Source of the DNA: Candidatus Bathyarchaeia archaeon
Lineage (GTDB): Archaea > Thermoproteota > Bathyarchaeia > 40CM-2-53-6
Assembly (NCBI GenBank): GCA_049586635.1
Contig: JBAVCK010000126.1
Span: 1-49,785 of the forward strand
Length of the DNA stretch: 49,785 bases
Direction of reading: 5' to 3'
Numbering within the stretch: position 1 is the first letter of the stretch; each line of letters opens with the position of its first letter. Of the stretch, positions 35,791-40,643 are shown piece after piece. The position numbers and the translations under genes were made by a program. The notes beneath the pieces are model-generated. The model did not search any database. It worked only from the letters and a program-made list of their open reading frames with translations, and was not told the origin of the DNA.

Positions 35791-36576
35791 ATGGTCAGAA
35801 AATGCCCAGCATGCGGCTACAACAACCGCGACGACGCAGCATTCTGCTCAAGCTGTGGCTCATCACTCGCAGGCGCAGCAGGACCCACACTCAAACCAGT
35901 CCCTTCAGTCCGAGTTGTAACACCTGTCAGCCCTGGCAACCCGATCAGGGTTCCAGCACCTGGCCAATGTTACTATCACCCTAGCCTACCCGCCGTCTAT
36001 GTTTGCAACCGTTGTGGAAGAGCGATCTGCCGCGACGACTCGAAGGCATACATGGACCTTGTACTCTGTCCGCAATGTTACCAAGGCGTTGTACCGATGG
36101 TAGCAGCTCCACAACAGCAAATGCCATCGATGCAAATGCCACCTTATCAACCGATGCCAGGACCCGCCTACGGTCCACCCCCAATGGCAGCGCCGGCTCC
36201 CTTCATGGGACCATTGCCCCCGCTTTACCAACCTGCTCCCCCGAGAGCTCTCTGGGGCTTCATACTAGCAATGATCGCAGGCATACTTGTGATACTTAAC
36301 GCAGCAGCTTTGCTTTCACCGAGTTTCTACACTCTATGGACAGGCATCTTCTTCTGGTTGCCAGCTGTCGGCCCGGCAAGTCTAACGTTCGCTATAGGAG
36401 CGATAATCGGGCTCATACTGGTAATCGGATCAATACTAATGCTACTAGGATACGGAACCATAGGCAGCATAGTTGTCTTTCCACTTGCTGTCTTGAGCTT
36501 GCTGATCGGCGGTGGCTTCGTGGCCGGATTCGTTCTGGGCGTGCTGGGTGGAATACTCGGCATGCTAGGACGCTAG
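35791..36576 (+). CDS. membrane-anchored zinc-finger protein: RanBP2/NZF-like zinc ribbon + B-box-2-like finger + Pro/Met-rich linker + 3-4 TM helices (candidate E3/adaptor)
   Basis: CPACGYNNRDDAAFCSSCG matches C-x2-C-x3-N-x6-C-x2-C. CYYHPSLPAVYVCNRCGRAICRDD...CPQC matches C-x2-H-x8-C-x2-C-x4-C-x2-D-x9-C-x2-C. The linker is QQQMPSMQMPPYQPMPGPAYGPPPMAAPAPFMGPLPPLYQPAPP. The C-terminal half is hydrophobic and Gly-rich. Confidence 0.75.
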   Translation: MVRKCPACGYNNRDDAAFCSSCGSSLAGAAGPTLKPVPSVRVVTPVSPGNPIRVPAPGQCYYHPSLPAVYVCNRCGRAICRDDSKAYMDLVLCPQCYQGVVPMVAAPQQQMPSMQMPPYQPMPGPAYGPPPMAAPAPFMGPLPPLYQPAPPRALWGFILAMIAGILVILNAAALLSPSFYTLWTGIFFWLPAVGPASLTFAIGAIIGLILVIGSILMLLGYGTIGSIVVFPLAVLSLLIGGGFVAGFVLGVLGGILGMLGR

Positions 36577-36631
36577 CGGCACAATAATCATTCCCAATTT
36601 TTTGTCTCCTTCCGGTTTCTTGGTGTAGGCT

Positions 36632-37774
36632 TTGTCCTACGTGAGCATAGCGAAGCCCGTTAACGATAAAATAGTCCGGGCTGCGCGCACGACTAAGAAT
36701 GAAATAATCGGCGTACTGATAGGACGGTTTCAGGACAATACCATAATAATCGAAGACTCGGTCACCGGTGAATCCGCCGCCGAGCCGCACCGAGCAATCC
36801 TCTCATCGAAAGCGTTGGCGGAGATTGCGGACGGAATTGTGACCGGCCGGATAAAGGGCAATATTGTCGGCTGGTACCACTCACACACCCACGGCGGGCT
36901 CTTCTTCTCGCAAACAGACATCGCAACCCAATCAATACTCCAACAGTTTTCAACACTCATTTCTGGAATGGTCGTGGACGCCTCGACCGGCGATGTGGGC
37001 TTCTTTCGCGTGGAGCCTTCGAGTGGGCAAGCCGTCCGCATATCTGCTGAAAGAATCACAGTCTTCACCGTGCGGTCGGCGGCGGTTCGGCCCGAGGCAA
37101 GAGCGGAGCCCCCTGCTGCGATACCAACGGTCGAAGTGAAGCAGTCTAATTCCCGGATACGCATACTTGGAATCTTCGGAGCCGTTGGTCCTATTGTCTA
37201 TATCGCCGCCGTCTTGATTGGCGGTTTCTTATGGCCTGGGTACTCACACTATAGCCAGACAGTGAGCACGCTCATCTCATCGCGTGCTCCTAACCAAGTC
37301 ATAATGGTGCCTCTTTTCGCCTTCTACAATGTTTGCTTGATCCTTCTGGCGGTTGGTCTATACTATGGAATCCAGAAAGAAGTCAGACACATTTGGGGTT
37401 CGGCGTTCCTAGTCGCCGCAGGCGCTGGGGGCCTGGTTCTCTTTCTTTTCCCGCAAGATTATACCGCCGGTCCTCCGTTCGCTGTATTGGACTTGCTGCA
37501 CTTGGTCATCACAGGAATTATTGCATTCTTCTCGCTTGCAGCGATTGCTCTCTTTTGGCTACAATTCCGTCTCGACCCACGTTGGAAAGGCTACGACCGT
37601 TTCAGTATCGTAATGCTACCAATCGCGCTTACCCTAGGTGTCCTCGGCCTCATCTCGATTTCCGCCCCATACGCAGGCCTTGCCGATAGATTGTCCATTG
37701 GATCATTACTGTTATGGATTGAGGTCGCTTCAACTGGACTCATCATTCGTGGTTCAAAGGGTTCCGCACCGTAG
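36632..37774 (+). CDS. JAMM/MPN+ (Rpn11-like) metalloisopeptidase fused to a polytopic DUF998-like membrane domain
   Basis: Has the catalytic Glu context KNEIIGVLIG and an exact JAMM motif HSHTHGGLFFSQTD (H-x-H-x7-S-x2-D, nt 36878-36919). The C-terminal about 200 aa hold about 6 TM helices and the PGYSHYSQTVSTL signature of DUF998. TTG start (GTG at 36641 is an alternative). Confidence 0.85.
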   Translation: MSYVSIAKPVNDKIVRAARTTKNEIIGVLIGRFQDNTIIIEDSVTGESAAEPHRAILSSKALAEIADGIVTGRIKGNIVGWYHSHTHGGLFFSQTDIATQSILQQFSTLISGMVVDASTGDVGFFRVEPSSGQAVRISAERITVFTVRSAAVRPEARAEPPAAIPTVEVKQSNSRIRILGIFGAVGPIVYIAAVLIGGFLWPGYSHYSQTVSTLISSRAPNQVIMVPLFAFYNVCLILLAVGLYYGIQKEVRHIWGSAFLVAAGAGGLVLFLFPQDYTAGPPFAVLDLLHLVITGIIAFFSLAAIALFWLQFRLDPRWKGYDRFSIVMLPIALTLGVLGLISISAPYAGLADRLSIGSLLLWIEVASTGLIIRGSKGSAP

Positions 37775-37787
37775 CTGGCTGAATAGA

Positions 37788-37976
37788 ATGAATAAGGAGG
37801 CCACGACGTTAGACGAAGGCTCCGGAACAGAAGGTTACCACATCGGCCTCCCAGGCTCACAATGCATACCATGCACCCAACAAGAGCCACCCGGGGCGGG
37901 GACCTTGCCTTCACGCACCATCCGATTCATAGCAAGACAGTTTAAGCTCATCTGCGAAAATGAAGGCCCAGCATGA
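37788..37976 (+). CDS. possible 62-aa ORF translationally coupled to the Ubl gene
   Basis: The ATG at 37788 comes 14 nt after the JAMM stop. Its TGA stop overlaps the ATG at 37973 (ATGA). The sequence MNKEATTLDEGSGTEGYHIGLPGSQCIPCTQQEPPGAGTLPSRTIRFIARQFKLICENEGPA has no recognisable family. Confidence 0.25.
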   Translation: MNKEATTLDEGSGTEGYHIGLPGSQCIPCTQQEPPGAGTLPSRTIRFIARQFKLICENEGPA

Positions 37977-38239
37977 GTGGAGGTGAAACACGACAAATGA
38001 AACTGTTCGTCCAAGCGCCCATCGGCCCCCAGACTGGCCTAGCGGAAATCGATGTAATTCCAGACCATACTGTTGCGGAAATAAAGCAACAGGTCTGCCA
38101 ATCGTTCAACGTTGACCCGAGCACCGTGGCTCTCATGTATGGAGGCGCGATATTAGACGAGGGTACCACCGTTGCAAGATTAGGCATCCCTGAAAATGCT
38201 CAGCTTGCGCTCATGCCATACAACATCATCGGCGGGTAG
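37973..38239 (+). CDS. ubiquitin-like beta-grasp protein ending in Gly-Gly-stop
   Basis: MKLFVQAP...DHTVAEIKQQVCQSFNVDPSTVALMYGGAILDEGTTVARLGIPENAQLALMPYNIIGG-stop follows the ubiquitin pattern (MQIFVK..., L.F.G..L.D..TL). The likely true start is the ATG at 37997 (80 aa), which has GGAGGTGA 10 nt upstream. The GG codons are at 38231-38236. Confidence 0.85.
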   Translation: MSGGETRQMKLFVQAPIGPQTGLAEIDVIPDHTVAEIKQQVCQSFNVDPSTVALMYGGAILDEGTTVARLGIPENAQLALMPYNIIGG

Positions 38240-38250
38240 GCTAGCTAGAT

Positions 38251-38844
38251 TTGGATGTCTCGTTGCTGCTGAAGGAAAAGAGCCTGCTCAACCATCAGTT
38301 CCCTACAGTCACTGCAATCGACGACCCACCCACTCAATTCGAAGGCCTCATTCGCTGCGAGAAAGGGGAAGTCATGAAGCTGTCCGAGAAGGGAGTCTGG
38401 CCCTTCACTGATTACACGAACTGGCACCGCTTCAGACTTGATATTCCCCCAGAATACCCGTTAAAGCCACCAGTGGCTACCTGGCTCACGGAAATCTCCC
38501 ATCCAAACATAGTCCCGAAAATACCGAACGCCGTATGCGTTTCAATACTCGGAGAAAAATGGGACCCTAGGCTGAAACTCGTATCTGTCGTCAACGCGTT
38601 ACATTACCTTCTGACCGATCCAAACCCTCAGAGTGTTTTTGATAACCCCCGGGCGCTCAAAGCAGCAGACGTTTGTCGTTCGTACGGATTTCCCAAGATG
38701 ACGAAAGCTAGGCCAACGAATAAGGAAGCCGACGATATTGTCCGCTTCAACGTAGTCCCTGTTCCCGAATTAGCCAAATCTTCAGGCGCAGATGACATAG
38801 TTAGGTTCGATATCCCTGGACGGGTACGCCGAGCGTCTTCTTGA
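38251..38844 (+). CDS. ubiquitin-conjugating enzyme (UBC-fold E2) with C-terminal repeat tail
   Basis: FRLDIPPEYPLKPPVATWLTEISHPNIVPKIPNAVCVSILGEKWDP carries YP.kPP, an HPN triad (38500-38508), the catalytic Cys (38536-38538) and a downstream W.P. TTG start 11 nt after the Ubl stop. The tail has two ADDIVRF[ND] copies. Confidence 0.85.
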   Translation: MDVSLLLKEKSLLNHQFPTVTAIDDPPTQFEGLIRCEKGEVMKLSEKGVWPFTDYTNWHRFRLDIPPEYPLKPPVATWLTEISHPNIVPKIPNAVCVSILGEKWDPRLKLVSVVNALHYLLTDPNPQSVFDNPRALKAADVCRSYGFPKMTKARPTNKEADDIVRFNVVPVPELAKSSGADDIVRFDIPGRVRRASS

Positions 38845-40085
38845 TGCGCATAAGAGCCTCGCTCCCTTCCTACAAAGAGCTCGAAGTGGAGCTGAACCCA
38901 AACAAGACGGTGAAGGATCTCAAGCAAATAATTTGCAAGAAACTAAGCATTGAACCAGAGCTCACCAATCTGCTGGCAGGCGGCAAACTCCTCCCGGAAC
39001 ATTGCCGACTGTCGAAAATCAAGGGCAAAGTAATCGTTGACTACCTTTGGGCGCGACACTTGCTCGTTTGGGGGCCGGAAGGACAGCGGAGGATAAGGGA
39101 TTCATCGGTGCTACTTGCTGGGGCCGGCGCCATCGGGAACGAGGTAGCCAAAAACCTAGCCATGTTGGGAGTCGGCAAAATCTTCATTGTAGACCGGGAT
39201 ATTGTCGAAATGTCTAATGTTAGCCGCATGGTGCTCTTTCAACAAAACGACCTGGGACGGAATAAGGCCGAGGTTCTGGCAGGAAACCTCCACAGAAAAT
39301 ACCCTTTCGTTCAGACGATTGCCTTCACGGGCGACCTCGAGAAGATGCCTCTGAAGTTCTATTTGGACTCGGACGTAGTTGTTTGCGGGCTCGACAATGT
39401 CGTCTCGCGAATTTTTCTAACCCAGATTTGCAGAAAATACTCCATCCCGTTAGTTGATGGGGGAATCACGGGGCTGAACGGTAGAGTGCATGTCTACCTA
39501 CCGCCCGACGATGCGTGCCCTGTATGTATGTTTCCGCCCAACCAGTACTCTAAGATCGTTGGCTTACGAAACCCATGTGATGCACCGTTGGAGCAGGAGG
39601 CCGTTCCATCCTTTGCAACGACGATTTCACTGGTCTCATCAATACTTGCCCAGGAAACGATCAAGCTGATCCTAGGGATGAAGGAATACCGGGCGAACGC
39701 AAAATGGCCTGGAACCAGCGGTCAACCCCTCAGATCTGTCTTGTTCATGGACTTGAAGAATAATCGGTACACCCCGATGGACTTGAAGCGTGGTGAGAAA
39801 TGCTTCGTGTGCGGAAAGGAAGGGACGACTAGAGAACCTGCCCAACGGGCTGATTTGCCGTTCGAAGTTGCCCATAGTTCGAAGGAGAGTTTGGAAGAAA
39901 CTATCCGCCATCACACCAAAATCAAGGCCGGAACATTGAACGTCCTAACGGAAACTTCTGAGGGTTCAAGACTACTTAACGGGCATTCAAGGCTAGGCAA
40001 GGGTATCGCCCGAGGGGACTATCTCAGAGTTCTCGGCGAAGACAAGAACGGAGAGTTTCACGAATCAATTCTAAGGCTGACATAG
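38841..40085 (+). CDS. E1-like ubiquitin-activating enzyme (ThiF/MoeB/UBA adenylation domain) with N-terminal ubiquitin-like domain
   Basis: LLAGAGAIGNEVAKNLAMLGVGKIFIVDRDIVEMSNVSRMVLF is the E1/ThiF nucleotide-binding signature. The CPVC...CFVC zinc pairs are present. N-terminal residues 2 to about 70 (ELEVELNPNKTVKDLKQIICKKLSIEPELTNLLAGGKLL) align by eye with ubiquitin ([37 protein letters not shown]). The start overlaps the E2 stop. Confidence 0.85.
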   Translation: MMRIRASLPSYKELEVELNPNKTVKDLKQIICKKLSIEPELTNLLAGGKLLPEHCRLSKIKGKVIVDYLWARHLLVWGPEGQRRIRDSSVLLAGAGAIGNEVAKNLAMLGVGKIFIVDRDIVEMSNVSRMVLFQQNDLGRNKAEVLAGNLHRKYPFVQTIAFTGDLEKMPLKFYLDSDVVVCGLDNVVSRIFLTQICRKYSIPLVDGGITGLNGRVHVYLPPDDACPVCMFPPNQYSKIVGLRNPCDAPLEQEAVPSFATTISLVSSILAQETIKLILGMKEYRANAKWPGTSGQPLRSVLFMDLKNNRYTPMDLKRGEKCFVCGKEGTTREPAQRADLPFEVAHSSKESLEETIRHHTKIKAGTLNVLTETSEGSRLLNGHSRLGKGIARGDYLRVLGEDKNGEFHESILRLT

Positions 40086-40208
40086 TGTGAATTTTGTAAT
40101 AACCGTGTCACACTTTTGCACGCGGATCATTCCAACTCCCATGGATTGCCACATTTCACGACGAATTGGGATGGACGAACCCCTTCCGCCCTAAGCAACC
40201 GTTAAGAA

Positions 40209-40643
40209 ATGCTTGATGCCAATGGATGTCGGGATTTCAGCATGTCAATGTGTCCGGCTTGCGGCTCACCCAACTCTGGGGATGCAAAGTACTGTTTCAA
40301 ATGCGGTGCGATGGTTTCCCGTGGACCACCTGTGAAGGTTGAAGTGCGATCGCCCTTAACTCCCTCCATGAAACCAACTCCGGTTGCTCCAATCGCTCCG
40401 TCAACGTACGTTTCGAGACAAGGCCAAAGACAGGGAAGCTGCTACTATCACTCTGAGCTCCCATCATCGTTCATATGTTCAAGATGCGGCAGGTCGATTT
40501 GCGCAGCCTGTAACAGGCAATACGGGGTTCTAAGCCTGTGCACAGAATGTTACTGGGGATTAGCCCCCAAACTAGGCGCTCCACTCGGACAATATGCGGT
40601 TGCGAGTGAGCAGCAGGCCCGTTCCCCGTTTTCGCTCTTTTAG
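40209..40643 (+). CDS. soluble zinc-finger protein: RanBP2/NZF-like zinc ribbon + B-box-2-like cross-brace finger (candidate E3)
   Basis: CPACGSPNSGDAKYCFKCG matches C-x2-C-x3-N-x6-C-x2-C. CYYHSELPSSFICSRCGRSICAACNRQYGVLSLCTECY matches C-x2-H-x8-C-x2-C-x4-C-x2-C-x9-C-x2-C (8 ligands). It is a paralogue of the N-terminal half of 35791-36576. The true start is probably the MSMC Met (about 40242). Confidence 0.75.
   Translation: MLDANGCRDFSMSMCPACGSPNSGDAKYCFKCGAMVSRGPPVKVEVRSPLTPSMKPTPVAPIAPSTYVSRQGQRQGSCYYHSELPSSFICSRCGRSICAACNRQYGVLSLCTECYWGLAPKLGAPLGQYAVASEQQARSPFSLF

Follow-up and report, generated by a model that had tools for sequence, protein, structure and literature searches.

The window analysed here is the whole 49,785-nucleotide stretch of contig JBAVCK010000126.1 (assembly GCA_049586635.1) from a soil archaeon of the Bathyarchaeia. 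Its plus strand encodes, from the ATG at 38844 to position 40085, a ubiquitin-activating enzyme (E1) that follows the genes for ubiquitin and a ubiquitin-conjugating enzyme (E2). The first 67 residues of this E1, counting the ATG at 38844 as residue 1, are almost certainly a beta-grasp domain of the ubiquitin family that forms part of the mature enzyme and has the anatomy described below. A first-pass annotation of this DNA had proposed such an N-terminal ubiquitin-like domain (N-Ubl) by eye, numbering it from residue 2 because an in-frame TTG (38841) lies one codon 5′ of the ATG.

The peptide quoted in that annotation is present as written, and its alignment with the quoted ubiquitin string contains 17 identities in 57 ungapped positions. 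When residues 1-80 were searched in isolation, PF00240 matched with 29.3 bits (E 7e-7), above the curated cut-off of the family (25.4 bits), and when the whole E1 was searched, the same family matched residues 10-58 with 25.2 bits, just below it. Residues 10-57 were aligned with ubiquitin (8q7r_U) by phmmer against PDB sequences, and BLASTP against the window's own ubiquitin gave 27% identity over 52 residues. A domain profile built from 130 distinct N-terminal segments was compared with other profiles using hhalign, and it matched the free ubiquitins of Bathyarchaeia operons (probability 97%, E 8e-11), the free ubiquitins of Caldarchaeales operons (96.6%, E 6e-10) and the ubiquitin-family domain at the C-terminus of Caldarchaeales E1s (94%, E 2e-7).

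The full-length AlphaFold2 (AF2) model of the E1 had a score of 80.8 in the predicted local distance difference test (pLDDT) and a predicted template-modelling score (pTM) of 0.83, with low confidence at the first eight residues and no strand assigned by DSSP in residues 1-20. Because of this weak N-terminus, residues 1-73 were folded alone with a more diverse alignment. The resulting model (pLDDT 86.3) has strands at 2-7, 11-16, 41-45 and 62-67 and a helix at 23-34, and the predicted order of these elements is the ubiquitin pattern, residue for residue. The best 50 Foldseek matches in the PDB were exclusively ubiquitin, ubiquitin variants, NEDD8/Rub1 and one bacterial ubiquitin-like protein, with template-modelling (TM) scores of ~0.8, root-mean-square deviations of 1.4-3.0 A, ~71 aligned columns and 20-26% identity. 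The structure prediction named in the first-pass annotation as a check for a beta-grasp fold thus recovered the ubiquitin fold, and the proposed domain is borne out by PF00240, hhalign, AF2 and Foldseek.

The domain passes into the adenylation domain through the sequence VIVDYLWAR, in which D66 is near-invariant and Y67 nearly invariant in homologue alignments, followed by LWAR. In the model there is no linker, and strand 5 (VIVDY, 62-67) runs directly into the adenylation-domain helix (68-72) that carries W69-A70-R71. A segment without a C-terminal Gly-Gly that leads straight into the adenylation domain had been described, and this is what the junction contains; the GAGAIGNE motif had also been identified and its start (39120) placed correctly, the true end being 39143 and not 39140, three bases further on. 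No homologue examined has a glycine at the junction. For this reason N-Ubl is neither a modifier nor cleavable in the manner of ubiquitin precursors, and a cleavable ubiquitin-E1 precursor, considered by analogy with BubAB, was ruled out on the same ground.

A downstream translation start was also rejected, since residues 1-14 are conserved and the first Met in frame after M1 is M107, beyond the P-loop. M1 is aligned across E1 homologues, also distant ones, to ~26% identity in the N-terminal segment, and a start at the in-frame TTG of L73 would cost the conserved DYLWAR motif. The view that the segment is no true domain, and reflects a downstream start, a cleaved precursor or a chance resemblance, can draw on in-frame GTG codons at V15 and V23 and on the metatranscriptomes, in which three runs gave only small contigs, some within the E2 (38200-38646) and others at 39537-39757 of the E1, leaving 38844-39044 uncovered. 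Nevertheless, with the conservation of M1 and residues 1-14, the overlap of the ATG with the E2 stop codon, the glycine-free junction in all homologues and profile and fold matches far past chance, this view is very improbable.

The near-invariant residues of N-Ubl are P8, C31, I36, E37, T41 and D66. In comparison with a 79%-identical relative, the ratio of nonsynonymous to synonymous substitution rates (dN/dS) was 0.17 in N-Ubl, compared with 0.055 in the adenylation domain and 0.23 in the C-terminal one, and by this measure N-Ubl is under purifying selection. A closer relative, 97% identical (L003:4001-4201), differs from the window E1 at 14 amino acids, seven of them inside the 67-residue N-Ubl; all seven are at variable positions, and the N-Ubl dN/dS of this pair is ~1, on very few changes.

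Adenylation and C-terminal domains

VIA-align of the E1 model gave Z values of ~27 to MoeB, ThiF and UBA3. Invariant in the adenylation domain are G93, G95, G98, D117, D119, R128, K141 and D184, as are the two zinc pairs CPVC and CFVC (C225/C228 and C320/C323). Judging from its position alone, C245 would be the catalytic cysteine. The LWARHL of the E1 was aligned by phmmer with LYSRQL in the inactive adenylation domain of Uba1; in the MoeB and Uba1 structures the equivalent arginine extends into the partner adenylation domain at its ATP site, and R71 would be such an arginine finger.

The first-pass annotation regarded the enzyme as a minimal single-domain E1. This is wrong, because residues 330-413, modelled with pLDDT mostly 84-93 in the full-length protein, form a further conserved domain. 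Structural alignments by VIA-align that end at ~330 span ~225 residues, whereas those that continue to 413 span 281-292; the last 84 residues add ~60-65 aligned residues and end at the ubiquitin-fold domains (UFDs) of UBA3 (2nvu_B), SAE2 (9dqb_B), Uba1, UBA6 and UBA7. Similarly, a eukaryotic ThiF+E2_bind cluster in the ESM Atlas was aligned over E1 residues 69-410. Pfam gave no match to residues 330-413, and hhalign gave no significant match of this region to free ubiquitins or to N-Ubl and a value of 19% to the Caldarchaeales C-terminal domain. When a profile of the region was run against PDB sequences, the isolated SAE2 UFD came up weakly (E 0.11-0.15). The assignment of residues 330-413 as a UFD is moderately supported.

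The layout of the enzyme is thus Ubl, adenylation domain and UFD-like domain, with N-Ubl coming on top of the UFD-like domain and not instead of one. In eukaryotic E1s, a C-terminal UFD recruits the E2. The statement that the window E1 is arranged differently is correct, since its ubiquitin-like domain is N-terminal and lies also at the opposite end from the PF00240 domain of the Caldiarchaeum E1 described below.

Distribution among archaeal E1 enzymes

A word-index search found 443 E1 homologues. Among the 120 matches listed, the length was almost always 411-417 residues, and for most of them the pair PF00240+PF00899 was already precomputed. In the 301 sampled Bathyarchaeia genomes the N-Ubl segment was present in 54, once per genome and concentrated in the order of the window, and in these 54 the open frame was ~410-500 residues long in all except one contig-end fragment.

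A tree of the E1s was calculated with IQ-TREE on an alignment of 54 rows and 262 columns that was confined to the adenylation domain. All 24 E1s with N-Ubl fell into a single clade (support 100/100), and the Caldarchaeales-type E1s formed a separate clade (99/99) that grouped with eukaryotic E1s (87/80). The single clade indicates that N-Ubl was gained once and retained by every sampled descendant; a few members have a shortened N-Ubl, and none of those examined is without it. The C-terminal domain, on the other hand, is absent from some members of the clade, with three state changes on the tree. Loss of this domain within the clade is the more economical reading of these sequences, although the losses are not proven because the root of the N-Ubl clade is unresolved. 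The E1s with N-Ubl and adenylation domain only, of 301-364 residues, make up a third E1 group, occur in at least two sub-lineages and carry labels including Thermoplasmata and Thermoleophilia. As they consist of these two parts only, N-Ubl is their sole beta-grasp domain.

E1, E2 or the whole operon of archaeal type, with up to 69% identity, was also seen in records labelled as bacterial MAGs or isolates (L005, L018, L020; P0053, P0084, P0125, P0374), with labels that include Acidiferrales/Acidoferrales, Terriglobales, Methylomirabilota, Nitrospiraceae, Thermoleophilia and [Eubacterium] cellulosolvens. These may reflect mis-binning or gene transfer.

For comparison with other archaeal E1s, the Pfam UQ_con family was searched over 401 genomes of the phylum. 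E2s were found in 66 of them, mostly in families of another class, and 20 loci were taken from these genomes and their open reading frames (ORFs) compared with the proteins of the window. The relatives reached by a word-index search with the window E2 were all Bathyarchaeia, and the Caldarchaeales systems came from the Pfam genome search. In 13 loci of the other class (L113-L120, L126-L130, L132 set) the order is a short JAMM gene on the divergent strand and then ubiquitin, E2 and E1. All 13 E1s have 388-425 residues and start within ~45 residues of the adenylation domain, so that the comparison proposed in the first-pass annotation separates a Caldarchaeales type without an N-terminal extension from the N-Ubl clade, which has one in every member examined. 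In 6 of the 13 loci, window residues 10-61 were aligned to the C-terminus of the E1 instead (~316-367). Pfam on eight of these E1s found a C-terminal PF00240 domain in seven (E up to 0.03), five of them above the cut-off; L113:6461-7657 is an example of such an enzyme.

One Caldarchaeales-type E1 shares a 90% cluster with BAJ51327.1, the E1-like enzyme of Candidatus Caldiarchaeum subterraneum that has been reconstituted biochemically (PMC5654768). The passages returned by text searches of that paper and of the genome paper do not mention a ubiquitin-like domain on the E1. The Caldiarchaeum E1 resembles the window E1 in being archaeal and eukaryote-like, in directly following ubiquitin and E2, and in having one ThiF domain, two CxxC pairs and one PF00240-type domain on the same chain. 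It differs in that the PF00240 domain is C-terminal, at the UFD position, with none ahead of the adenylation domain, in ~50 extra residues between the parts that match window residues 229 and 288, and in belonging to the other clade, nearer to eukaryotic E1s. The rest of the system differs as well, having a short JAMM protein and a small RING protein (PMC5654768) where the window operon has B-box proteins.

In a fourth operon type, archaeal in appearance, the E2 gene is followed by JAB and E1, and ubiquitin lies on the opposite strand (L133:3941-7465, L134:1551-4129). The E1s of this type have 414-487 residues, no N-terminal domain and a long C-terminal region, and are closer to the window E1 by E-value than those of the Caldiarchaeum type. 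Another archaeal fusion of beta-grasp and E1 domains, ThiF with ThiS (PF02597), was seen in a Nitrososphaerota cluster of the ESM Atlas comprising 406-residue proteins.

Possible roles of the N-terminal domain

The first-pass annotation had suggested that N-Ubl could recruit the E2 in cis or be an autoinhibitory module. By analogy with related enzymes, we tentatively favour a role of N-Ubl as a fixed docking module with the E2 as its likeliest partner, at a probability somewhat short of even. The enzyme would be expected to form a homodimer like ThiF, MoeB, UBA5 and Atg7, because it has a single adenylation domain per chain. N-Ubl, four residues ahead of R71, would then sit rigidly beside the active site of the partner subunit, because the equivalent of R71 in relatives enters the partner's ATP site. 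From this place it would serve the cascade as a fixed docking module and, as a second, N-terminal 'UFD', would position the E2 so that transfer can occur across the dimer, in the manner of the Atg7 N-terminal domain. The likeness to the Caldarchaeales C-terminal domain, the existence of N-Ubl-only E1s and the precedent of Atg7 (PMC12355090) speak for such UFD-like docking.

In Atg7, a homodimeric E1, the N-terminal domain keeps the E2 in place so that transfer can proceed from the opposite subunit (PMC12355090). Atg7, and likewise the trans mechanisms of Cap2 and UBA5 (PMC12355090), resembles the arrangement expected here in the N-terminal accessory domain, the homodimer and the catalytic cysteine in the crossover loop. 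The Atg7 domain, however, comprises ~288 residues and has no beta-grasp fold, so that the two are alike only in their logic. The eukaryotic UFDs (UBA3 E2_bind, SAE2/UBA2 and Uba1) share with N-Ubl the nature of a beta-grasp accessory domain on the E1 itself, and the whole model finds its best structural counterparts in UBA3, SAE2/UBA2 and Uba1, whose UFDs coincide with window residues 330-413. They differ in being C-terminal, whereas N-Ubl is much nearer to ubiquitin in sequence, coexists with a UFD-like domain and does not lie C-terminal to the active adenylation domain, where UFDs are found.

Several points weigh against E2 docking by N-Ubl. The UFD-like domain is kept at the canonical C-terminal position and could alone recruit the E2. 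Free ubiquitin is at least as close to N-Ubl as the C-terminal domain of the Caldarchaeales type is, and descent from a UFD is therefore not indicated. C31, I36, E37, T41 and D66, which show the strongest conservation in N-Ubl, adjoin the junction, and conservation at this pole may reflect only packing on the adenylation domain. Furthermore, the place of N-Ubl by the partner active site is inferred from relatives. Complex prediction with isolated residues 1-67 and the full E2 scored 0.00 in two runs without controls, and weighs neither way. That N-Ubl is the working E2 recruiter of a homodimeric E1, offering the E2 to the opposite subunit in an Atg7-like geometry, we consider rather doubtful.

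N-Ubl could also be a substrate clamp that touches ubiquitin on the other subunit, or a brace that steadies the dimer and the arginine-finger helix; the FCCH domain of Uba1 and the N-terminal peptide clamp of MccB are the models for such a part. The lack of a linker, the conserved arginine four residues past N-Ubl and the peak of conservation at the junction pole agree with such a role, as do the N-terminal modules of homodimeric E1-like enzymes, which often hold the substrate or dock rigidly. MccB is among the structural matches, and the JAB domain of BubCD is rigidly docked (PMC11601596). BubCD, Cap2/BubBD and MccB all combine homodimeric adenylation domains with a docked N-terminal module (JAB peptidase, E2 and peptide clamp, respectively; PMC11601596), but this module is never of the ubiquitin family. 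Against this stands that Caldarchaeales-type and E2-JAB-E1-type E1s activate, or should activate, ubiquitin without any N-terminal domain. A clamp or brace appears unlikely overall. Some ThiF proteins of bacteria, e.g. Campylobacter jejuni, have been described as beginning with a ubiquitin-like domain (Iyer, Burroughs and Aravind 2006, PMC1779556). These fusions likewise have a beta-grasp domain N-terminal to the ThiF Rossmann domain; the paper lists the architecture without E2/JAB context, and they are set beside the window E1 by description only.

Two further roles would give N-Ubl a partner or a surface other than the E2. As a ubiquitin-fold handle, it would be bound by the zinc ribbons of the B-box proteins or by the membrane JAMM protein, bringing the E1 to the membrane. 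Where the flanks could be read, N-Ubl loci usually have the long JAMM gene and the zinc-ribbon/B-box genes, and the same queries found only the short JAMM gene and no B-box match in Caldarchaeales-type loci. However, neither gene was seen in L136, the JAB protein is short in L138, and the match to RanBP/NZF-type zinc ribbons is weak (E 0.025-0.36). The co-occurrence is moreover limited to a single clade and therefore counts as one evolutionary event, and we judge a handle to be quite unlikely. As an autoinhibitory pseudo-substrate, N-Ubl would cover the ubiquitin surface of the adenylation domain until displaced, and being ubiquitin-like without a reactive tail it could bind there unactivated. 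The domain is constitutive in every E1 of the clade, no release partner is evident, and it is under purifying selection as expected for a working domain, although regulation would be compatible with this. Because there is no linker, N-Ubl would also have no room to swing in and out, and autoinhibition is improbable.

Operon context and meaning for archaeal ubiquitin systems

The E1 gene is part of a set of six co-directional genes (35791-40643), which are listed in Table 1 with the features of the E1.

Table 1. Genes of the window operon and features of the E1 (positions in the window; residue numbers count from the ATG at 38844)
Feature	Position	Strand	Basis
Zinc-ribbon and B-box-like protein, C-terminal half hydrophobic, head of operon	35791..36576	+	Pfam; position conserved in related loci
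JAMM/Rpn11-like peptidase fused to DUF998 membrane domain	36632..37774	+	Pfam JAB and DUF998
Free ubiquitin, ending in GG-stop	37973..38239	+	ORF translation; PF00240 E 2.5e-10
E2 (UBC fold), C-terminal tail with two conserved strand-like motifs	38251..38844	+	UQ_con E 6e-17; alignment
Overlap of E2 stop and E1 start, TGATG	38842..38846	+	Sequence; E2 and E1 likewise overlapping or abutting in related loci
E1, N-terminal ubiquitin-like domain, residues 1-67, no Gly-Gly, no modifier	38844..39044	+	PF00240, hhalign, AF2, Foldseek; conservation in 130 distinct homologues
E1, ThiF/E1 adenylation domain, residues 68-329	39045..39830	+	Pfam ThiF (PF00899) E 7e-52; structural alignment
E1, R71	39054..39056	+	Nearly invariant; four residues past N-Ubl; matches Arg of YSRQ motif (Uba1, MoeB)
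E1, P-loop GAGAIGNE	39120-39143	+	Sequence
E1, C245 (NPC), candidate catalytic cysteine	39576-39578	+	Invariant; short crossover loop; 239-247 low pLDDT
E1, C-terminal domain, residues 330-413, resembling a UFD in place and shape	39831..40082	+	AF2, VIA-align, ESM Atlas
Soluble zinc-ribbon and B-box-like paralogue, tail of operon	40209..40643	+	Pfam; position conserved in related loci

The tail of Bathyarchaeia E2s (window 38700-38841, residues ~150-197) contains the motifs D-x-V-R-F-N-I-V-P-I-P and G-D-I-I-R-F-x-I. In E2s beside the short N-Ubl-only E1s, the tail is instead short with RVxVE in L017, L019 and L135, and a zinc ribbon is found in L136 and L137. Because the tails differ beside short E1s, the form of the E2 tail may go along with whether the E1 has its C-terminal domain.

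In three loci, ubiquitin and E2 are fused in one ORF (L016:507-1376, L018:3242-3949, L136:3123-3959) with Gly-Gly at the junction, which reads …LIGG|IDIARLL…, …MKGG|ADAARLM… and …IQGG|VDEELL…, respectively. In L136, the C-terminus of the fused protein also bears a CxxC…CxxC zinc ribbon and an acidic tail. These ORFs resemble BubA-BubB, a precursor encoded in type I Bub operons and cleaved by the JAB peptidase (PMC11601596). A second ThiF-family gene in the genome of the window (G000:C74:14719-15417, a frame of 451 aa with 256 bits to PF00899) is presumably a MoeB/sulfur-carrier E1.

The two-domain annotation (PF00240+PF00899) already exists automatically, and two Bathyarchaeota clusters in the ESM Atlas already bear the name 'ThiF family/Ubiquitin family domain-containing protein'. 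In the literature on archaeal ubiquitin systems and E1 architecture, we did not find any archaeal, eukaryote-like E1 described as having a ubiquitin-like domain at its N-terminus, although an earlier mention in work on the E1 superfamily is possible; nor did we find, in that on archaeal ubiquitin systems, the contrast with the C-terminal domain of the Caldiarchaeum E1. In a survey of archaeal ubiquitin-system genes, the products are said to be single-domain proteins (PMC4327156).

Among prokaryotes, archaeal ubiquitin operons are the nearest models of how the eukaryotic cascade arose, and two types of archaeal E1 bear a ubiquitin-family domain at opposite ends. If N-Ubl is merely a structural brace, this is a modest annotation point. 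If it recruits the E2, then E2 recruitment by a ubiquitin fold would have arisen twice, or changed ends before it was fixed at the C-terminus in eukaryotes, and the lineages with N-Ubl only would be natural 'UFD-less' E1s. The E1s with N-Ubl only, with N-Ubl and a C-terminal domain, and with a C-terminal ubiquitin-like domain only form a natural series of compact, bacterially expressible enzymes, suited to the questions of what brings a minimal homodimeric E1 together with its E2 and whether it matters where on the chain the ubiquitin fold lies.

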